From the IMG/VR virus record IMGVR_UViG_3300025098_000044, positions 1 through 59,241 of that record: a stretch of DNA of 59,241 nucleotides. The stretch is one strand, 5' to 3'. The stretch comes from a virus (Duplodnaviria; Caudoviricetes). Numbering within the stretch: the first letter of the stretch is position 1; the number at the start of each line of letters is the position of its first letter. The notes beneath the pieces are model-generated. The model had not been told where the DNA came from. It worked only from the letters and a program-made list of their open reading frames with translations, and ran no database searches. The position numbers were made by a program, and so were the translations under genes. Shown piece by piece: positions 2,083 through 56,411 of the stretch.

Positions 2083-3839
2083 TGACCGAAAAAGAGCACC
2101 AAATTCAGGACTTAATTCGCATAGATCCAGAGGTGTGGTTTTCTACATTTGCGGTTATTAAGGACAAAAGGGGTAAGGATATTAAACCTAAAGCGAACAC
2201 GCTTCAAAAGCGTATGTTTGCTCATTATAGAAAGTGTCAATTAGAGCAAAAACCATGCAAAATGATCATATTAAAGCCTCGTCAGAAGGGGGCGAGCACA
2301 TGCGCTCAAGCTCTGACATACCACCACATGAGGAAGCACGAGAATTTAGCGGGCTCACTGATGGGGGATATAGCGGGAACCTCGGACAAGGTTTTCGAGA
2401 TTTACCGGAGATATGCGGAAAACGACGAGTTCCCCTGGAACGATACAGGAACAAACCTCGAGGACGGTGGAAGTCTCGCAGACGCGATCAAGCTGATCAG
2501 CAAAAGCGTCTACGGAAAAGAAACCGCCGGATCGAAAAACGCAGGTCGAAGTGGAACGATTCAGGTAGGTAACATGACCGAGGTTGCTTTCTGGCCGAAT
2601 ACTGGCCAAAAAGACCCAGCTCTTGGTTATCTACAATCTTTGTACGACGGTGACAATGTATCTTTGGTTGTTGCCGACTCTACACCAAATGGCCCAGCTG
2701 GTTGGTTTTACAATACATGGATTCAAGACAATGAATGGGCGAAGATATTCGCCGCATGGTGGGAGTTCGAAGATTCCGAAATTCCTTTCAAATCCGAAGA
2801 AGAGCTTCAGGATTTCAAGGATACCATGACCGATGATGAAAAGTCCGAAGTCGAGCGTTTCGATGTAAATTGGGAGCAGATGCATTGGAGAAGGAGAACT
2901 CTTCAGGACAAATGTAATGGTGATGTTTCTAAGTTCCGACAGGAGTACCCGTCCGATCCCGAAGAATGTTTCTTAATGTCATCCCGACCTCGCTTTCAAA
3001 TGGAAGTATTAAAGGAAATGGCTGATGCGGCGGAGAAACAGCATTTCAGAACAGGAAATCTGTCCCTACAAGATAACGGGTCAGTTTCATTCAATTTAGA
3101 TAGAGTAGGTGGGTGGAATATTTACGATGAGCCTGAGACCGACTCTAAGTACATAATAGGAGTGGACACTTGCACTGGTGAGGATCAGCAAATGCAGGGT
3201 CTTGCAGCCGATCCCGACTACCATTCCGTTCAGGTTTGGAAAGCTCCTTATGAGGATTGGCACGGTGATTGGCATGTAGCCCGTATGGTAGCTGTACATC
3301 ACTCCCGTGTGGATATCGGAGTATTAGCCGAAGAGATCCAGGCGGCAGCCCAATGGTACGGAGGTGCTTTTGTTGTACCCGAAGTCAACAACAGCGGTCT
3401 TGCTATAATTAAATATCTGCTTGAGGCGGGTGTGCATGTTTACCAAAGGCGAAAAGTAAACAACTCCACCGGTATGGTTGAAAAGTTCTACGGTTGGCAG
3501 ACTGATAAAATCACCCGAAAGACGGTAATTGACCATATGGCATCGGAATTGATGGATAGGAATTTTGATATTCCCGATAAAGGGATACTCCAGGAGATGA
3601 AGGTATTCGTTATTAACGATAAAGGTAAACCCGAAGCCGCTCCTGGTCACCACGACGATCATGTATTAGCCGCCGCACTTTGCTTATATAACATGGAGTC
3701 CGCTTCCACATTCAAAGGCCCGAAGAAGAAACAGATCACAAACCGGATGCTTCGTAAAAACCCAAGTTTGATGTGTCCCGATGGTTTTATGAGGGTTCCT
3801 TTAGGATCTATTAAACATAATTACAAGCGGTTGAGGTAG
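2082..3839 (+). CDS. terL: Terminase large subunit
   Basis: Walker A ILKPRQKGAST, Walker B-like VGNMTEVAFW, coupling motif DSTPNG, FRQEYP, RNase H nuclease IIGVDT...EVNN...HDDHV; start placed at ATG 2082, which overlaps the upstream TGA. Confidence 0.93.
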   Translation: MTEKEHQIQDLIRIDPEVWFSTFAVIKDKRGKDIKPKANTLQKRMFAHYRKCQLEQKPCKMIILKPRQKGASTCAQALTYHHMRKHENLAGSLMGDIAGTSDKVFEIYRRYAENDEFPWNDTGTNLEDGGSLADAIKLISKSVYGKETAGSKNAGRSGTIQVGNMTEVAFWPNTGQKDPALGYLQSLYDGDNVSLVVADSTPNGPAGWFYNTWIQDNEWAKIFAAWWEFEDSEIPFKSEEELQDFKDTMTDDEKSEVERFDVNWEQMHWRRRTLQDKCNGDVSKFRQEYPSDPEECFLMSSRPRFQMEVLKEMADAAEKQHFRTGNLSLQDNGSVSFNLDRVGGWNIYDEPETDSKYIIGVDTCTGEDQQMQGLAADPDYHSVQVWKAPYEDWHGDWHVARMVAVHHSRVDIGVLAEEIQAAAQWYGGAFVVPEVNNSGLAIIKYLLEAGVHVYQRRKVNNSTGMVEKFYGWQTDKITRKTVIDHMASELMDRNFDIPDKGILQEMKVFVINDKGKPEAAPGHHDDHVLAAALCLYNMESASTFKGPKKKQITNRMLRKNPSLMCPDGFMRVPLGSIKHNYKRLR

Positions 3840-45248: not shown

Positions 45249-45590
45249 ATGGCAAATGTACTATTAAATTGGACAGCTCCCGCGGATACATCTAATATCA
45301 CGGGCATCGTAATCTTAAAAAAATCCGTATCAGCGGGCTCATCCGTTCCATCATGTGGCGATTTTATTCCAGATGAAAAAATTAGAGGTGCCAACACGGC
45401 AGCCGACTTAACGGATAGCACTGTTTCTCAAGTAGGCTCGGATATTACCGACCCGGCTACTGTCGCGGCAAATGGTTCCGTTACTGAAACTGGTGTAACG
45501 GCTGGGAGCTACTATTACGCAGCATTTTCTTACAACGCGGCGGGATATTCCCCTTGCGATGTGACGAATTCCGAGCTTGTAATTTCTTAA
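45249..45590 (+). CDS. Single fibronectin type III domain lacking strand A
   Basis: Starts VLLNWTAP (strand B); ends YYYAAFSYNAAGYS (F/G strands). Confidence 0.78.
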   Translation: MANVLLNWTAPADTSNITGIVILKKSVSAGSSVPSCGDFIPDEKIRGANTAADLTDSTVSQVGSDITDPATVAANGSVTETGVTAGSYYYAAFSYNAAGYSPCDVTNSELVIS

Positions 45591-46741
45591 GCTACCCACA
45601 ATGCCAGCATATCTTTGCTTGGCATTAATTTGGCGTAGTATTTTGAAGTAACTTGAGGGCTTGTGTGTCTTAGATAACTCTGGGCTACATACAAGCCCTT
45701 AGTTGTTGCTAGATAAGATCCGTATAGCTTTCTTAACTCGTGCAAAGGGCTTTGTCGTGTCCAGCCGATATCTCTTAAAGAGTCAGTGACAACTTTCATC
45801 GTTTTTTCGGCAGTCCTAGCACGATCCGTTACAAGATAATCAAACCCCTCTGATTTATCTAAAATCTTTGAACCCCACGCGGCACTACCTGCCGTGTAAC
45901 CATCCATACCTCCTTTCGGTTTAAACTTACCTTCGGATTTAATACAGATAGCACAGCGATCGTCGTCAATATCTAACCAGTTCCGCTTAGCAAAAAAGAT
46001 CTCTTTCCGCCTCATACCAAAATGCAAGGCTAAAGCCATGATTACAAAATGATCACCGTCCACTTCATTCATTAATTTAAAAGTATCTTCGATTAACGAT
46101 GTCTCCGGTAATGTATAATCCTTCTTAACTCGGTTGAAAAATATCTCTTTCTTTAGGTAACTAAGACCTTCAAAACTCCAGCTCTCAGGATAATATGCCA
46201 TAGCGGTCTCGGAAAATACCGATTTAGCATTTCTAAGAAGAGTATTATATGATCTTTTCTTCTCACCTAGGGTAACTAAATCTTTAATACCCTCGACCCT
46301 ACGCTTTTTTTCTTCACGAAGCATCTTCTTAGTCAACTTCTTTAAAGGCAGTCCCATCGCTTCTTCGTCCGATAAACCTGTGACTCTATATAAACCTCTA
46401 CGATAACACTGAACCGTACGATCGCTTATACCGACTAAATTTTTATTTTCCTTAAGCATGTCGACAATCAACCCTAAGGTCGGCTGTATTCGGTCGTCGG
46501 GCTTAGGTGTTGGAGCGGGTTTACCTTGTTGTTTTTGTGGTGAATATTTTAATAAGGTTTCGGACACCGTATTAAAAACTAAGTAGGCATCGATCTCATC
46601 AGCCATCTCTTTAGCAATGTTTAAATCTTTTCCTAAATTAAAATACAGAGTTTTTTTATCTCTAACTATTCTGTAAGTCCAGTTTTTAGAACTTTGATTT
46701 CTTTTATATACGCGATTACCGCGTTTCGTTGTATACTTCAT
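45587..46741 (-). CDS. int: Tyrosine integrase
   Basis: FGMRRKEI (R), LHELRK (HxxR), LRHTS...TSKYY (H,Y); start reassigned to ATG 46741 with AAGGT upstream. Confidence 0.92.
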   Translation of the reverse strand: MKYTTKRGNRVYKRNQSSKNWTYRIVRDKKTLYFNLGKDLNIAKEMADEIDAYLVFNTVSETLLKYSPQKQQGKPAPTPKPDDRIQPTLGLIVDMLKENKNLVGISDRTVQCYRRGLYRVTGLSDEEAMGLPLKKLTKKMLREEKKRRVEGIKDLVTLGEKKRSYNTLLRNAKSVFSETAMAYYPESWSFEGLSYLKKEIFFNRVKKDYTLPETSLIEDTFKLMNEVDGDHFVIMALALHFGMRRKEIFFAKRNWLDIDDDRCAICIKSEGKFKPKGGMDGYTAGSAAWGSKILDKSEGFDYLVTDRARTAEKTMKVVTDSLRDIGWTRQSPLHELRKLYGSYLATTKGLYVAQSYLRHTSPQVTSKYYAKLMPSKDMLALWVA

Positions 46742-46779
46742 GTTGTACCTTTTTTTGACCCTTTTATGTTGATGTTTAA

Positions 46780-46846
46780 ACACCACATATTGTGTAAGTG
46801 TCATTTAAAAGCCAGTAGTGGTGCGGATAACTACCACATGTTGTGG
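46780..46846. promoter_or_regulatory. Two palindromic NrdR-box-like sites (or integrase arm sites) upstream of int
   Basis: ACACCACATATTGTGT (46780-46795) and CTACCACATGTTGTGG (46831-46846), 51 bp apart. Confidence 0.55.
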
Positions 46847-47218: not shown

Positions 47219-47519
47219 AGAGCTCGGCTTAACTAAAGATTTTGTTCAAAACTCATTTGGGGTTCTACCCAATGAAGTAAAGGTAGAGGAAAAAAATTAC
47301 CTTGATGTCGAAGATCAGAAACGAATTCGAAGGAGACTTAAGCAATATTCTAATTTTATTATAGCAAGATTTGAGCAAGGTTATGCTCCTTGTATAATCG
47401 CACAATTGCTAGGAGTGTCCGAAGAGTCTATCAGGTCGAGACTTAGGAAGGCGGGTTTGTTTAATTCAGAAGGACCTGGTCGTCCGAAGAAAAACCGAAG
47501 TATTTCCAACGGTCTCTAA
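47211..47519 (+). CDS. HTH DNA-binding protein
   Basis: FEQGYAPCIIAQLLGVSEESIRSRLRKAG. Confidence 0.7.
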   Translation: MLEELGLTKDFVQNSFGVLPNEVKVEEKNYLDVEDQKRIRRRLKQYSNFIIARFEQGYAPCIIAQLLGVSEESIRSRLRKAGLFNSEGPGRPKKNRSISNGL

Positions 47520-47919
47520 ATTTTTCGTACTGGCCTCTTGAATTTCTTTTGTGTGGGTACACATGTACAATAGTAGCACTTATATCTTTAACGGGTACCA
47601 TATACCAAGCATCTAGCTCGGCTATGTAAATCACTAAATACTGCACATTAGTATCTCGAAGATGTACACGGTCGCCCATACATGTCGCCTTTGCTTGATA
47701 TCGAATAGACTCTTCAGATAATCCGTGGTCTAGCTTACTCCCCGTTCTAACTTGAGTGATAATAGGCTTTCCGGTTTTTTTATTGATGATAACAATGTCA
47801 AAACAAGCGGGGTCGCCCCATGGAACACAAGGACACAAACCCCTATTGTAAGCTTCAAAACAAAAACGCAGTTCCCCCGCTGTACCTCGCTCGGAATTTA
47901 TTCCCGTTTTATAATCCAT
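47461..47919 (-). CDS. PD-(D/E)XK endonuclease-like protein (I-Ssp6803I/PDDEXK_5-like)
   Basis: RGTAGE...G..P..P.GD...FD.V......QVRT...WY.VP pattern. Confidence 0.7.
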   Translation of the reverse strand: MDYKTGINSERGTAGELRFCFEAYNRGLCPCVPWGDPACFDIVIINKKTGKPIITQVRTGSKLDHGLSEESIRYQAKATCMGDRVHLRDTNVQYLVIYIAELDAWYMVPVKDISATIVHVYPHKRNSRGQYEKFRDRWKYFGFSSDDQVLLN

Positions 47920-50553: not shown

Positions 50554-52476
50554 TTACTTTGTATACCTCTCCATAATCACGGTGTCCGAATCAAGTGGGA
50601 TATCGCACCATGTCGGAGGGGTAGTCATTATTCTTTTTATGTCTTTTTTGGCTTGGTGAAGTTTTTCATTTTCAACTTCAACAACAACCTCGTCGTGAAC
50701 AGTCATGACGATTTTGTAACCAAGCCTATCAATTTCAATCATGTGCTCCGAAAACAGATTCCGAGCGTTTGCTTGAACTTCATTTTGAAATAAGTTAGCC
50801 CCGTAATAGTTACTCCTACGGCCTCCGCCTTTTTGTAGCTTCGCTTTAGTCTGATCTTTTTCCTCGCGGATGTTCCAGAAATTAATCAAGCGACCATTCA
50901 TCAACTCAATTTGCATATCGTCACCATCATTTCGTGACTTATACTCCGAATCGTACTCACGCCATTTTTTGACAATTTTCGGGTTTTTATCACGGTAATC
51001 CATGACTTGAATAAATGCGTTTACCCAATGTTTTTTCGTAATAGAGTCGGCGGCATTAAACCATGCTAAATACTTTTTCTGATAAGAGTCTAAAAAGTTA
51101 GTAAATCTTTTCTTATCACCGAGGGCATACTCGCCTTCTAAGATTTTTAATTGCCCGAAAGATTGAACCGTCTCGTAAAATTTGTGCCAACCACAACCGT
51201 ATCCAAGTTGAAGGACACGGGTCTTAGCTAGCAAGTAGAGATCGGGGTCTTCATCTTTAAGTTTACCACCCGTCCACCCCATAGTATTTATAGCATGAGC
51301 CTCATACGGGTTGTAACCTTTGCGAACAAGATCAAGAGACTCAGTGTCGCCAACACACGCCCAAATTAAACGGGCTTCAATTTGACTAAGGTCACTTACA
51401 ATAAATGAATGACCATCGGGTGCTTTTATGCAGTTTCTGATATTAACACCGAACTTTGTGTCCCGTGGTAAATTCTGCATATTAAATCCACCAGCTCCAC
51501 TCCATCGGCCGGTGACTTCTGCACCGAAATACATTAAAGAGTAGGGCATCCTACCATGTATGTTGATACGGTCGTGCATCGTCTTTAAAGTCTTCAGATG
51601 CTTGTTGATGCGATTGTAGTTCTGCATATCCGCAACAAAATTTAATTTGTCTTTATACTTAGCCACCCACTTCTCCGTTTCCTTGTCTCCCTGGGCGAGG
51701 GACTTAGGTGGAGGGATACCTCTTTTGCGACATTCTAATGCCAAGGCTTTCTTGGAATATACTACATAAGGTTTTTTAGTGTCGGGGTCGATTTGATCGT
51801 ACCAAGGAAGATTTCTTTTAGCCTCCCATAAAGCCTTTTCCAGTTTATCAATTCCCGCCTCGACGGTGGGCTCGCATATTTTAACACCCTCCTCGCCCAT
51901 TCTTATTGTTAAATCTTCAAGCTCAAGTTCGATCTCGGGAATCTGTGGGTACAAATGTTCTAACAGTCTCCACTCGAGAACTGCATCTTGTTTCGCGTAA
52001 TTTACTACATCATCCCATTTACCTTCCGCTTTTATATCTTCGGGAGTCTTACCTTTCATGTAATCTCTTACTTCTTTTGACATGTCCTCATCAAATGCAC
52101 CCCGCATCGCATCTTGAAGACTACGACCAAGCTGCAAATAACAAGACATTGCGGAAGTATCGTGCCATCCTTTGATTTCGATATCGGGCATAAGACCCAT
52201 CTCGATTGCTTTAAGGGTGACGGGATAATCGAATCCTCTATTATGGGCTACGGCAATCCTACCTTCGAGCCTACCCCAATCAAACTCTCGGGGGTCACCC
52301 GCCCAAGATTCGTCTTTCCCGCCACCCCAAGCTAATCCCACGAGATAAGGATGAAATCGTTCGTGCTTACAGTACTCCCAAGTAGTTGTACCTTTTATTG
52401 TACAGTCTTTGTCATAGTAGGTTTCCCAGTCTATGACGAAATAGTTATCTTTTAAAAATTGTCTTCTCGTGGTCAT
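50554..52476 (-). CDS. polA: DNA polymerase family A with 3'-5' exonuclease
   Basis: Exo DWET, AHNRGFD, YAKQD; TGRWS, NMQNLPR, motif A DLSQIEAR, motif B AKTRVLQLGYG, motif C VHDE. Confidence 0.95.
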   Translation of the reverse strand: MTTRRQFLKDNYFVIDWETYYDKDCTIKGTTTWEYCKHERFHPYLVGLAWGGGKDESWAGDPREFDWGRLEGRIAVAHNRGFDYPVTLKAIEMGLMPDIEIKGWHDTSAMSCYLQLGRSLQDAMRGAFDEDMSKEVRDYMKGKTPEDIKAEGKWDDVVNYAKQDAVLEWRLLEHLYPQIPEIELELEDLTIRMGEEGVKICEPTVEAGIDKLEKALWEAKRNLPWYDQIDPDTKKPYVVYSKKALALECRKRGIPPPKSLAQGDKETEKWVAKYKDKLNFVADMQNYNRINKHLKTLKTMHDRINIHGRMPYSLMYFGAEVTGRWSGAGGFNMQNLPRDTKFGVNIRNCIKAPDGHSFIVSDLSQIEARLIWACVGDTESLDLVRKGYNPYEAHAINTMGWTGGKLKDEDPDLYLLAKTRVLQLGYGCGWHKFYETVQSFGQLKILEGEYALGDKKRFTNFLDSYQKKYLAWFNAADSITKKHWVNAFIQVMDYRDKNPKIVKKWREYDSEYKSRNDGDDMQIELMNGRLINFWNIREEKDQTKAKLQKGGGRRSNYYGANLFQNEVQANARNLFSEHMIEIDRLGYKIVMTVHDEVVVEVENEKLHQAKKDIKRIMTTPPTWCDIPLDSDTVIMERYTK

Positions 52477-52567: not shown

Positions 52568-53233
52568 CTACATGAATTCCCCTAAAAATGTTTGAAACTC
52601 CTCGGAGTTAGCTCCGGATCGCTTCAAAGTGTTCACCCAATATGAACCTTTTGATCCGTCCACTTTCTTAGGCTCCATAGTGAAACTTCCACCACGGATA
52701 TTGTTTTTAAGAAAGGTACTATCAGCGGTCACAATAGGTTTCGCGGCTGTTGCGTAACTTGTACCTTTAATTCTCCAAGCGCAGAACATGAAGTTGTTAC
52801 CTTCAAATTCATATGGGAACTGTTGTGGGTCTGCATTTTCAGGCCCATGCACACAGATCATAGTGTCCATAAGTGCGTTGGCCGATGGTCGTTGGTTGTC
52901 TACCCACTTGAGGCTAAGACCAGCTTCTAATAACTCTTCTTCAGTATCAAAGAATCGAGATGTTTCGTCAGCCCCAAAAGGGATGTACTCCACATACGAT
53001 TTCTTATAACTCATCACGGTTACAATCGCCGGCTTATCTATCTCGAACTCGTTATCAACCACAAGTTTACCCTTTTGCCAATCACCCCATGCTCCTGCCC
53101 CTTGGGCTAGTCGAAGCTCGGGCATAATTATATCGGAGGCTTGGAAGTCCCCTTGTGCATAAGAGCCGGTTGCGATAGCAACTTCATTCGTTTCTGTTTC
53201 TGTTTCTTTTGGTTTTTCTGCTGTTTTTGGCAT
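52568..53233 (-). CDS. Putative ssDNA-binding/replication accessory protein
   Basis: SDIIMPELRLAQ motif; acidic; between exonuclease and polA, the usual SSB slot. Confidence 0.55.
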   Translation of the reverse strand: MPKTAEKPKETETETNEVAIATGSYAQGDFQASDIIMPELRLAQGAGAWGDWQKGKLVVDNEFEIDKPAIVTVMSYKKSYVEYIPFGADETSRFFDTEEELLEAGLSLKWVDNQRPSANALMDTMICVHGPENADPQQFPYEFEGNNFMFCAWRIKGTSYATAAKPIVTADSTFLKNNIRGGSFTMEPKKVDGSKGSYWVNTLKRSGANSEEFQTFLGEFM

Positions 53234-53337
53234 AACTTAGTTGGTTTTTAGGTTTGTTTGTTTCAGTAGCGTATAAAAAAATTATACACTCTAGTTAAAA
53301 CTTAATATGCGTTGAAAGTCGCGGGGTGTGACAAATT

Positions 53338-54186
53338 TCATGATTTTGTTTTTGTTAAGTAAGGTGTTCTTGAGTCTTGCTCATCATCATCGCTGGCAAT
53401 GACTCCACTCTTTAATAAGGCTAATTCAATTTTGGCTCGGGCATCTTTCTTCTCACCCCGTGGAAGTTTAGATGCGTAGGCTTTCGATAAAGCGGGTAGG
53501 GTGACCTTACACGCTTTGACAAATTCCTCCGGTGCTAGAAGTTGCTCCAAGGCATCAAACGCGTCCTGTGCATCATTGATCTTTGCCGCTGGTGATCGGT
53601 ATCTAAGATCGAAACCTGGAATATCATACCCCTCATCGGTGGCTAGCTCTAGAGCCCTAGCATTTACGGCTGAAGTCCAACGGTCGAGCACCATAGACAC
53701 AATCTTCATCTGTCCGATGGTCGCAGGATCGTCGATAAGTGCGGGATCCATCTTATCTAAAAGAGAAATCTCAAACTCATCAACCTTGTCGGCGTACTTC
53801 TTAGCGATTGGCAAGAGCTTATCAGATAGGGCGGGGCAGGTAATCCTTTCCCCACAAAATCTACAAGCCTCGGTATCGGGGTTCAACTGCTTCTTATCAG
53901 AAATTGCTCTCTCGATAATAAGTCTAATCCGAGCAACCTTTTCCAAAACCTCTTCCCGTGTAAAAATGTGGGATAATACTTCGTTACGCCTTGGGCATAC
54001 AAAATATATCTCCACAGTCTCCACCCACTCGTATCTTTGCAGGAGTCCGATAGCATAGGCCAATGACTGCGGGTTAATGTCCGCAGGCTCGATAGCCCCG
54101 TATCCAAACTTATAGTCAACTAACTTAGCTAACTTAAGCTGCTTGAATAGTATTATTTCGTCTGCTGTCCCGAATATTGAACGCAT
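53338..54186 (-). CDS. Cas4/DUF2800-like PD-(D/E)XK exonuclease, C-terminal part
   Basis: FGTAD, VDYKFG, Q...Y, CRFC-x5-CP. Confidence 0.85.
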   Translation of the reverse strand: MRSIFGTADEIILFKQLKLAKLVDYKFGYGAIEPADINPQSLAYAIGLLQRYEWVETVEIYFVCPRRNEVLSHIFTREEVLEKVARIRLIIERAISDKKQLNPDTEACRFCGERITCPALSDKLLPIAKKYADKVDEFEISLLDKMDPALIDDPATIGQMKIVSMVLDRWTSAVNARALELATDEGYDIPGFDLRYRSPAAKINDAQDAFDALEQLLAPEEFVKACKVTLPALSKAYASKLPRGEKKDARAKIELALLKSGVIASDDDEQDSRTPYLTKTKS

Positions 54187-54340
54187 TGCAAAAATTTAAG
54201 AATTGGGCGTCGCAAGTGAACTCGGCAAGTTGGTACAGCATTCCGTCTGCGCCTTTAACTTTGTAAACTCCGTCGTGTTGTTGAACATATTTAACAGGCA
54301 CTTGTTTGCGCCTCATAGTGGTAGTAAGAGTATGGGTCAT
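54134..54340 (-). CDS. 68-aa ORF inserted between the two exonuclease halves
   Basis: ATGA-coupled to the N-half stop; overlaps the C-half start by 53 nt. Confidence 0.5.
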   Translation of the reverse strand: MTHTLTTTMRRKQVPVKYVQQHDGVYKVKGADGMLYQLAEFTCDAQFLNFCNAFNIRDSRRNNTIQAA

Positions 54341-54603
54341 GTTATATCTATGGTTAGCTTTGTTTCTTTAATGACCTCATCCGCACCCTCTCGTAATGGG
54401 CGCACTACATCTAAGACTTTATTAACAAGAGCTATCTGATCTTCTGTAAGACCTTCAAAGTTCTCAGTCTCGGTAGCATGGTGAAGAAGTGTGCCTTCCT
54501 CAGCCGCTGGATTAGTCTCCCCCGAATTCCTAAAGCCTGGACAAATTTCCAGATGCTTTAAAGTACTCGGGCCAAATTTGTGGTGATCAATCGGACTTGC
54601 CAT
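54337..54603 (-). CDS. Cas4/DUF2800-like exonuclease, N-terminal part
   Basis: HHKFGPSTL...ICPG...AAEEGTLLH...KETKL then TGA. Confidence 0.82.
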   Translation of the reverse strand: MASPIDHHKFGPSTLKHLEICPGFRNSGETNPAAEEGTLLHHATETENFEGLTEDQIALVNKVLDVVRPLREGADEVIKETKLTIDIT

Positions 54604-54910
54604 CCGATAACTCTGCGACCTTAGTCGATAACGCGGCTATGTTAATCTTAAGATAAGCCAACTCCATTACAAAAGGAGTCAGTATTGCCGCTAATTGATC
54701 AATGTCCTCACCTTTAGTCTCCAAATCTTTAACTGCCCTATCCGCGCCATCTTGAAGAGACTGAGAAAGGTGCGCGGCATTAATGCTCACTAACTCTTTC
54801 ATGTCTTCGGGTAGGTCTTCGACATTCTTTAAAGAAAGCAAAAGGTTAGTTTCAGAGGCTTCCGGCTCTTCGGGTTTTTCGGGACTTTCGTCGTCAATTT
54901 TATATCTCAT
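54587..54910 (-). CDS. Hypothetical acidic helical protein
   Basis: 107-aa ORF overlapping the downstream gene. Confidence 0.65.
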   Translation of the reverse strand: MRYKIDDESPEKPEEPEASETNLLLSLKNVEDLPEDMKELVSINAAHLSQSLQDGADRAVKDLETKGEDIDQLAAILTPFVMELAYLKINIAALSTKVAELSDGKSD

Positions 54911-55061
54911 ATTTTATGTGGGTTTATTTGTTACTTAGAGCCTAGGTGGCTTGGTTAATTTCCCCTCTCGAGGCCAAGGCTTATCCACCTCCTGCTTGGA
55001 AAGTCTACCTTGCATGTATTTTTTTACTTTGTCAAACAAAATATAAAATTGTTTTACAATG

Positions 55062-56411
55062 TTATACAAAAATTGGATTAAGTTCGTCATCGTTTATTAA
55101 ATCTAAATGGTTAAGTTTCTTTTTAACGGCTGCACAGACACGCATCTCAATGCTTCCGGCTGCAAATATTATTTTCTGAATGGCGGGACTCTTGGAGCCT
55201 GCTCTGTGAATTCTACCCAAGGTCTGTCTAAGCTCAATCGCACTGAAACCTGGACTTATTAATGAGACTCTTGGATGATTGCCATGAGTGTCATGTAAGC
55301 TGATACCAACACCGCCCGCTTGAATCATACAAATAATAATCCTAGCCTCGTCCCGCTGAAATCTGTTTATATGCACTTCCCTTACATCGTCCGCCTGACC
55401 ACCCTCTATTATGGAAACCATACAAAGGTCGCTGATACGCTGGGCGATGGCCTCAAGAGTGGCTTTGAAATTTACAAATATAGCAACACTACTTCCCTCA
55501 GCATAAGCATCATGAGCCAGCTCTACAAAAGTTGGTACCTTCATTAGCTCAATCTGCTGACGAGCCCTTAGCTGAACGGTTAATGGATTCTCATCCTCAT
55601 CCTGATCAACCTTTTCCTGTAAAGCCTCAAGCTCTGCCGCCATGTTGTGGTAAATAGAATCTATATCCTCATCCAAACTATAACCATCGGGGATAATTAA
55701 ATTTTCGGGAAAAGTCCCCTTGGGCAAATCCGCAATCCGGATACGGGAACCATACCCCTCATAGATATGTTTATGAAATCTCTTTAGCACCGGCTTAGGG
55801 TTTCGGAACTCTAGGGAGAAGCGGCCTTTCTTACACCCATTTTTCTGACACCAGTTCCACCAGTCCTTACCGCTATGCATGTCGAGGGCATAACCCATCG
55901 CCCGCATCTCCAACGGATTTGAGCAACTAGTGGCTCCGAGTAGGAGTATCCGAAACCCTAAGGCTTTGGCACTAATGAGTATCTTAGAATTTAGAGACTT
56001 ATGCCCTTTCATCCTATGATCCTCATCAAAAATAATTAACATCTTATCGGGATCCAATGTCTTCCACCGAAAGAATCCACGCTTGGGTATCCAACCCCAA
56101 TCAGTCTTACCACCACGCAACTTCTCATAATTAATTACATAGTTTATATTCTGATTAAAATTTAACATCCATTCCTGCCACGCGGGAATAACACTCTTCG
56201 GGCAAACAACAAAAGGTTCAAGCCCAAGTCGCCTCGCAACTTCCATCGCAATCACAGTCTTCCCGGTCCCGGTATCACTACCATCCTTAGCCACACCATG
56301 TGCCTTAATACTTTGAGTAAGATTATCGCAATGATCCTTCTGCCAATCGTAAAGCTCAGGAACAAGCTTGTTCTTAGTACTCTGCCTAATCATACCTTCT
56401 ATAGTGCTCAA
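55062..56411 (-). CDS. SF2 (SNF2-like) helicase
   Basis: DTGTGKT, IIFDEDH, LGAT, AGGVGISL, QTLGRIHRAG. Confidence 0.92.
   Translation of the reverse strand: MSTIEGMIRQSTKNKLVPELYDWQKDHCDNLTQSIKAHGVAKDGSDTGTGKTVIAMEVARRLGLEPFVVCPKSVIPAWQEWMLNFNQNINYVINYEKLRGGKTDWGWIPKRGFFRWKTLDPDKMLIIFDEDHRMKGHKSLNSKILISAKALGFRILLLGATSCSNPLEMRAMGYALDMHSGKDWWNWCQKNGCKKGRFSLEFRNPKPVLKRFHKHIYEGYGSRIRIADLPKGTFPENLIIPDGYSLDEDIDSIYHNMAAELEALQEKVDQDEDENPLTVQLRARQQIELMKVPTFVELAHDAYAEGSSVAIFVNFKATLEAIAQRISDLCMVSIIEGGQADDVREVHINRFQRDEARIIICMIQAGGVGISLHDTHGNHPRVSLISPGFSAIELRQTLGRIHRAGSKSPAIQKIIFAAGSIEMRVCAAVKKKLNHLDLINDDELNPIFV

Follow-up and report, generated by a model that had tools for sequence, protein, structure and literature searches.

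The virus record IMGVR_UViG_3300025098_000044 (Duplodnaviria; Caudoviricetes), which was analyzed over its full length of 59,241 bases (87% complete; hereafter the window), encodes a DUF2800/Cas4-like nuclease as two separate open reading frames (ORFs) with a third, small ORF in another frame between them. We interpret this locus as an ancient gene in pieces, in which an N-terminal chain (N-part) and a C-terminal chain (C-part) would reassemble into a working Cas4/AddB-like nuclease, and we give this reading of the sequences a probability of about 0.75. According to the mechanism we propose, a cassette of about 150-250 nt with one small gene would have entered the DUF2800 nuclease gene in the ancestor of an uncultured marine phage clade, at the beta1-beta2 hairpin loop just before the catalytic IFGTxD strand. 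The gene would since have been read as three tightly packed, coupled cistrons (N, 88 amino acids (aa); small, 68 aa; C, 282 aa), and the N and C chains would assemble without a covalent link into one nuclease. Its active site would need AEEGT.LH of the N chain together with Asp9 and Asp24-x-Lys26 of the C chain, and a putative iron-sulfur (Fe-S) cluster would bridge the two chains via Cys21 on N and Cys108, Cys111 and Cys117 on C. In the weakest step of this mechanism the small protein might join the split nuclease as a subunit with an accessory or assembly role, a tentative proposal for which we consider the odds to be slightly unfavorable.

The nuclease family could be assigned for the C-part, which matched DUF2800 (PF10926) over profile positions 117-334 of 368 (E 2.9e-19) with 69.9 bits against a Pfam gathering cut-off of 21, and which also matched PHROG 69 "exonuclease" (E 1.3e-22). 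DUF2800 is counted among the RecB-like PD-(D/E)XK families (PMC3424549). The N-part alone matched no Pfam family at E<=1; it was 52-58% identical to the N-termini of fused DUF2800 relatives, in which the DUF2800 match spans the split point (residues 70-345 in the fused protein P0021). The end of the N-part (...KLTIDIT) and the start of the C-part (MRSIFGTAD) align with the uninterrupted ...KVNIELGVADVLFGSID of P0021. As the fused relatives align across both halves, nothing is missing from the two halves in the window.

Conserved motifs of PD-(D/E)XK nucleases are the Asp of motif II, the (D/E)xK of motif III, and QxxxY. The catalytic motifs of a RecB-like enzyme of this type were all present, with D9, D24, K26, Q40 and Y44 on the C-part and AEEGT.LH on the N-part. 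Tyr44 was invariant and Gln40 was kept in at least 90% of 30 aligned sequences, and the alignment of 24 N-parts showed 32 invariant columns. The 4Fe-4S cluster of Cas4 and AddB is held by four Cys, a single N-terminal one and a C-x2-C-x5-C triplet. The same four-Cys pattern was found here, with Cys21 in 24 of 24 N-parts and the triplet Cys108, Cys111 and Cys117 in 30 of 30 sequences, which bears out the claim of an earlier note on this sequence that the cysteines are split between the pieces. A distant fused relative, P0059, carries Ser at the first Cys position. The active-site parts are likewise divided, with acidic motif I on N and motifs II and III on C, and each chain by itself lacks part of the active site and part of the Cys set.

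The fold test was made on the fused relative P0021, not on the window's own chains. Its AlphaFold2 (AF2) model (predicted local distance difference test score, pLDDT, 81.7) showed a five-residue loop between strands 92-102 and 108-119, and by alignment the window's N-part ends and its C-part begins within this loop. The modelled cut is in a beta-hairpin turn beside the catalytic GxxD strand, a position at which breaking the chain is expected to do little harm. The model matched 18 chains at E<=0.001, and fold matches were found to AdnA (E 1.7e-6), Cas4 SSO0001 (E 2.6e-5), Exo5, ACE1, RecE, and AddAB. A sequence search of the PDB with the nuclease gave no detectable relative (a single row, E 0.18), and a nucleotide search of cultured phages gave no match. 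Among proteins of cultured phages, the best matches listed were 25-30% identical and all 211 matching records were below 60%.

The coordinates of the three ORFs (Table 1) had been given in the earlier note and proved correct on re-reading, as did the spacing of 417 nt between the ATG of the N-part and that of the C-part, which places both in the same frame. This shared frame is interrupted by three stops (TGA, TGA, TAA), also as described before, and the distance from the N-part stop to the C-part ATG is exactly 150 nt. The 68-aa ORF said to fill this gap was found in another frame. A 672-nt contig of another study (run X6) covers positions 54074-54745 including both junctions and differs by one letter.

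Table 1. Features of the split nuclease locus and its conserved neighbors (window positions)
Feature	Position	Strand	Remarks
N-part of DUF2800/Cas4-like nuclease	54603..54337	(-)	88 aa + TGA stop (54339..54337), end ...KLTIDIT
N-part Cys21	54543..54541	(-)	invariant in 24/24 N-parts
N-part AEEGT.LH motif (E35/E36)	54501..54496	(-)	invariant in 24 N-parts
ATGA overlap of small-ORF start codon and N-part stop codon	54337..54340	(-)	
Small inserted gene	54340..54134	(-)	68 aa + TAA stop; frame differs from both halves
Overlap of small-ORF 3' end and C-part start	54134..54186	(-)	53 nt
C-part of nuclease	54186..53338	(-)	282 aa + stop, start MRSIFGTAD
C-part motif II Asp9	54162..54160	(-)	invariant in 30/30
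C-part Asp24 and Lys26	54117..54109	(-)	invariant in 30/30
C-part Cys108	53865..53863	(-)	invariant in 30/30
C-part Cys111	53856..53854	(-)	invariant in 30/30
C-part Cys117	53838..53836	(-)	invariant in 30/30
Conserved upstream SNF2-like helicase	55062..56411	(-)	449 aa
Conserved downstream neighbor	52568..53233	(-)	221 aa; no Pfam match; adjoins C-part in relatives too
DNA polymerase A gene	52476..50554		after 221-aa neighbor

Both split and fused relatives of this nuclease were found. A protein search with the C-part returned 59 homologues, 48 of them C-part-sized or shorter (178-306 aa) and 11 fused (368-404 aa). A profile scan of IMG/VR gave 74 loci, and N and C hits were both found in 48; these comprised 33 loci split exactly at the window's site, 11 fused loci, and four split elsewhere. 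The remaining 26 loci either start within the gene or have diverged too far to be picked up by the N-part query. Three more loci (L076, L077, and L078) are split like the window, the C-part of L076 being 97% identical to the window's. Altogether, 37 genomes or contigs showed the three-ORF architecture (the window and 36 marine viral or metagenome loci), with C-parts 41-97% identical to that of the window. Locus scans with single proteins yielded little: a first scan of viral loci confirmed no relative, a scan of metagenome loci gave one locus, and searches with P0088 and P0086 gave none. The four loci split elsewhere (L039, L040, L045, and L046, at about 2690-3000) form a second split lineage, in which the break lies at an earlier site, after the AEEGT.LH helix, and stop and start overlap with no inserted ORF at the junction. 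This suggests that the DUF2800 family tolerates two chains more than once. The frame offset of the L039/L040 pair differs from that of the L045/L046 pair, and the DUF2800 relative L044 reads through in one frame. In the literature on DUF2800, the titles and opening lines of abstracts of the full-text matches name no split form.

We calculated dN/dS (ratio of nonsynonymous to synonymous substitution rates) according to Nei-Gojobori for 19 pairs, leaving pairs with saturated dS undefined and using only the portion of the small ORF that overlaps neither neighbor. Values were 0.01-0.11 for the N-part, 0.01-0.11 for the C-part, and 0.06-0.47 for the small ORF, with synonymous sites near saturation in the pairs compared; the proportion of synonymous differences (pS) in the small ORF was 0.15-0.86. 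Taken with the invariant residues, the low ratios identify both halves and the small ORF, as far as sequence comparison can tell, as working genes under purifying selection, in agreement with the earlier view that both halves are intact. Distances between small ORFs tracked those between C-parts (Spearman 0.69; none of 999 Mantel permutations was as high), which fits a small ORF that is inherited with its host gene and is not independently mobile.

At every split locus the gap measures 150-245 nt and is occupied by a third-frame ORF of about 60-100 aa, which is retained in all of these loci (37/37). Most of these small ORFs share the core G..V.RRGD.VYI.T....IPIYAFKMN..L..L....W. The small ORF of the window (VYKVKGADGMLYQLAEFTCDAQFLNFC) is strongly diverged from those of other lineages, and a hidden Markov model (HMM) built from the latter reached it with E 0.63 only. 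An HMM search of the whole library gave 29 matches at E<=0.001, nearly all of 46-97 aa, among which there was no nuclease with the small domain fused in. Members P0086-P0090, P0080, P0082, and P0084 connect the window's form with that of the other lineages, and it is only through these bridging members that homology between them was established. The long library matches P0079, P0081, and P0091 were repeat, tetratricopeptide repeat (TPR) or ankyrin proteins and were judged unrelated or merely similar in their beta-hairpin repeats. With an HMM of the whole family, 9471 six-frame pieces were screened, and there was one place per split locus, all 39 hits at E below 1e-16 lying between the halves; no hit occurred in fused loci, in the flanks or in the rest of the window. 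A word-based homologue search with the window's small ORF returned four proteins, its own and three at 80-82% identity.

Six small ORFs compared with Pfam and PHROG matched no family at E<=0.01, and no HNH, GIY-YIG, LAGLIDADG or similar domain was found among them. The AF2 model of the small protein (pLDDT 84.5) has four strands and a C-terminal helix and predicts a small beta-barrel with a C-terminal helix. Foldseek gave no match at E<=0.001 in PDB and BFVD, the best VIA Z was 4.6 with generic SH3, chromo, and Tudor-like barrels, and the ESM Atlas gave no usable hit. Judged by its distribution and selection, the gap ORF pointed out in the earlier note is a real, conserved, and selected gene of a new, undescribed family, with a homologue in all 37 split loci. 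Eight loci of one sub-clade (L002, L011, L015, L017, L018, L020, L025, and L026) additionally carry in the insert a hydrophobic ORF of 45-48 aa (...SLIEVLCWLLGLYGAVTGFILILLTMCYLCTHSKWKKN) in the frame of the C-part. It lies wholly within the small ORF in another frame and could be an overlapping membrane peptide or a by-product of the codon constraints of the small ORF.

The junctions were similarly organized throughout the split loci. In 35 of 35 tabulated loci the small ORF has an in-frame ATG at -11 to +5 nt from the N-part stop, and the C-part starts 1-50 nt upstream of the small-ORF stop in the same 35; L077 and L078 show the same overlap pattern at both junctions. Own start and stop codons are kept at both junctions in every tabulated locus. 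Overlapping stops and starts are the classic layout of translationally coupled cistrons, and translation of the three cistrons is probably coupled here as well.

Several other explanations of the interrupted frame were weighed against a nuclease reassembled from two chains. An interrupted reading frame for which fused homologues exist might indicate a pseudogene decaying after an insertion, or an artefact of assembly or sequencing, and the earlier note had named an assembly chimera or relaxed selection as what would overturn its reading. An artefact is contradicted by the independent X6 contig across both junctions and by the same architecture at 36 further loci with C-parts of widely differing identity, a pseudogene by the dN/dS of both halves, near-saturated synonymous sites, and the 32 invariant columns of the N-part, so that we regard this explanation as having practically no chance of being right. 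Very improbable too, though less so, is a rejoining of the halves into one chain by a small ORF-holding intron, by bypassing of the gene 60 type, or by a double frameshift. It would be in keeping with an insert directly ahead of the best-conserved catalytic motif, where introns and homing elements are typically found, with N and C being in frame in the window, and with the lack of any RNA read across a junction. But an offset of 0 was found only in the window, L076, L001, L012, and L029, while N and C are offset by 2 in 30 of the 33 viral split loci and in L077 and L078; by this comparison the in-frame relation in the window is a coincidence. For an intron or a bypass the frame alone decides nothing. 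Relative to N, the small ORF is at +2 in the window, L001, and L012 and at +1 in the others, and a shared frameshift signal is unlikely with a frame order that differs between lineages. The unusually small intron considered in the earlier note found no backing: no Rfam family matched at E<=1 over positions 53000-55200, and the fold of the insert RNA is less stable than expected from shuffled versions (z = +1.5), of which 192 of 200 equal or exceed it in stability. Furthermore, the gap is almost filled by a coding ORF of high synonymous divergence, which leaves no room for a conserved ribozyme core, and no catalytic core of a group I or II intron was found by these three approaches. Ribosomal bypassing, which had been proposed from ATA codons near both junctions, fares no better, as a twin of the last sense codon of the N-part before IFG in the open C frame is absent from the window and present in only 6 of 37 loci, at inconsistent places. 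The N tails vary by 0-3 residues after the hairpin Gly, and own start and stop codons are retained, both of which speak against rejoining. An intein or split intein was not found, with three stops in the frame, a C-part that starts 3-14 codons before IFG, and halves that carry no extra sequence beyond a few residues. L029 (2761..3010) is the only locus where readthrough of one stop would give a fused, longer chain; here the two parts share a frame in which only one TAA and, after it, 82 open codons lie between them, and the small ORF is intact in the +1 frame. Of the possibilities listed in the earlier note, the two-chain enzyme with divided Cys ligands thus stands as the best reading of the sequence evidence, and its rejoining alternatives remain unsupported.

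The most serious alternative, which we still consider unlikely, accepts that the chains reassemble and takes the small ORF for a passenger whose function, if it has one, is unrelated to the nuclease; it might be selfish, of the morons type, or all that survives of a homing endonuclease, namely its DNA-binding part. Free-standing endonuclease genes are known to split phage genes when they insert (PMC2988022), the nuclease halves evolve more slowly than the small ORF, and the fused clades keep the nuclease without this ORF. The second split lineage, moreover, has no inserted ORF, and the family therefore tolerates two chains without a helper. A passenger would however have to be reconciled with a small ORF that belongs to no endonuclease or other family in Pfam and PHROG, that occurs at one site only, and that is kept in all 37 split loci. 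It is also under purifying selection, its distances track those of the nuclease, and its 29 library matches include no fusion to the nuclease. We lean towards an accessory role of the small protein.

The history of the split was examined in a quick maximum-likelihood tree of 67 C-part rows. In this tree 44 split and 10 fused rows form one clade (Shimodaira-Hasegawa-like approximate likelihood ratio test, SH-aLRT, 100). One fused group, P0021 and relatives, is sister to the window's group (support 90), and a second (P0030/P0031/L003) lies in a basal polytomy. The fewest changes between split and fused states are three. Forcing all split rows into one clade cost 36.9 log-likelihood units (approximately unbiased (AU) test, p = 0.060), so that a single ancient insertion without later loss is not rejected. 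The best tree points to precise loss of the insert, once or twice, and homologous recombination with an unsplit relative could yield such losses without an endonuclease.

A number of observations weigh against our reading of the locus as a gene in pieces. On the best tree two fused clades nest inside the split clade, which means that the split is dispensable and that the small protein is not essential to the nuclease family as such. Compared with its neighbors, the small ORF changes much more rapidly (mean identity 37% versus 73% for N and 66% for C), and its dN/dS reaches 0.47 in one pair. The fold matches of its model are generic and uninformative on function. No Shine-Dalgarno-like sequence precedes the small ORF or the C-part in the window, and translation of both therefore rests on the proposed coupling. 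RNA run X20 contributed only two 151-nt pieces within the C-part, for which carry-over of DNA is possible, and none across a junction. Five further short pieces of this run (31-48 nt, near 53190-53230, less than 90% alike) showed no joints and covered neither junction. Finally, the three proteins, their assembly, the Fe-S cluster, and the nuclease activity are all predictions from sequence.

The split nuclease is located in a conserved neighborhood, whose order in relatives is helicase, about 1 kb, N, small ORF, C, 221-aa ORF. Downstream genes in the window encode the 221-aa protein, DNA polymerase A, a deoxynucleoside monophosphate (dNMP) kinase, a DUF5906 primase-helicase-like protein, and a PD-(D/E)XK endonuclease; upstream genes encode the SNF2-like helicase and a protein with sigma-70 region 4. 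The nuclease thus belongs to a replication and recombination module consisting of helicase, nuclease, 221-aa neighbor, and DNA polymerase A. At the end of the replication module, the PD-(D/E)XK endonuclease (47461..47919 (-); PDDEXK_5, E 1.4e-7) is accompanied by an ORF (45587..46804 (-)) with a weak phage-integrase match (E 0.0017, below Pfam's cut-off). Within a 107-aa ORF upstream of the N-part, a contig of run X7 carries a 9-nt insertion behind position 54868, apparently a strain variant that keeps the frame.

The first 16 residues of the helicase (STIEGMIRQSTKNKL, 56364..56408 (-)) resemble an N-terminal extension of the small ORFs of other lineages. Twelve of these 16 residues are identical to the small ORF of L023 (BLASTP E 7e-6; HMM E 0.005 over the six frames of the window). 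The extension is present in L023, L029-L035, L004-L006, L010, L013, L016, L019, and L027, and the peptide in the small ORFs of most lineages reads (S/T)IEGxIRQST(E/D)N. Lineages bearing the extension have a helicase without the IEGxIR part, and the window's small ORF is without the extension. Since third-codon positions differ, the peptide shared by helicase and small ORF is not a recent DNA copy. One could speculate that the small barrel is an obligatory third subunit, or an assembly or docking factor, of a three-chain Fe-S nuclease, and that the peptide is a docking motif able to move between proteins and to link nuclease and helicase to a common partner, giving an AddAB/AdnAB-like machine made of separate phage proteins. 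We consider this scenario improbable.

The usual explanation for a split phage gene is that a homing endonuclease gene has recently invaded it. In the present case the insert has no endonuclease and encodes a tiny member of an undescribed family, and selection has maintained the split throughout a clade of abundant marine phages. The locus might therefore serve as a natural test of whether an Fe-S "staple" holds two polypeptides together in a Cas4/AddB-type nuclease, and it has revealed a new family of small proteins known only from within another gene. Gene callers report three unrelated "hypothetical proteins" at such loci, and the nuclease family is consequently miscounted in viromes.

In comparison with known systems, the nuclease resembles Cas4, AddB, AdnA, and Exo5 in the modelled fold of its fused relative and in the C...C-x2-C-x5-C pattern, but the first Cys is on a separate polypeptide, whereas theirs are all four on one chain. 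The bypass in T4 gene 60 likewise concerns a phage gene with a coding gap that begins at a stop codon. The gap of gene 60 is 50 nt long; the one described here is three to five times longer and encodes a selected protein, and unlike gene 60 the window and 31 of the 37 loci lack matched take-off and landing codons. The gene order nuclease, conserved 221-aa neighbor, DNA polymerase A is like that of the duf2800-gp2.5-polA module described for phages (PMC8093625), except that the nuclease is in pieces. The 221-aa neighbor occupies the gp2.5-type position and is, without a Pfam match, a candidate gp2.5-like protein by position alone.

Genes broken into two ORFs with another ORF in between have also been described as fractured genes from environmental, largely marine loci, with split inteins and a homing endonuclease gene between the halves (PMC2677866). 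In the present loci there is no room for intein halves, as most N-parts end 0-3 residues past the hairpin Gly and the C-parts begin shortly before IFG, and the middle ORF is not an endonuclease. Closest in layout are nrdA of the Aeromonas phage Aeh1, split by mobE, and the T4 topoisomerase gene, split with mobA, for which gene 60 is the insertion site; the products of both reassemble (PMC2988022). As in these two cases, insertion into a critical region made two cistrons that would need reassembly, and the inserted ORF overlaps the upstream stop (UAAUGA for mobE, ATGA in the window), which suggests translational coupling (PMC2988022). Unlike mobE and mobA, the insert described here is only 150-245 nt long and has a product of 60-100 aa that bears no endonuclease signature, and unlike a recent sporadic invader, the small ORF has been conserved throughout a wide clade and diverges in step with its host gene.

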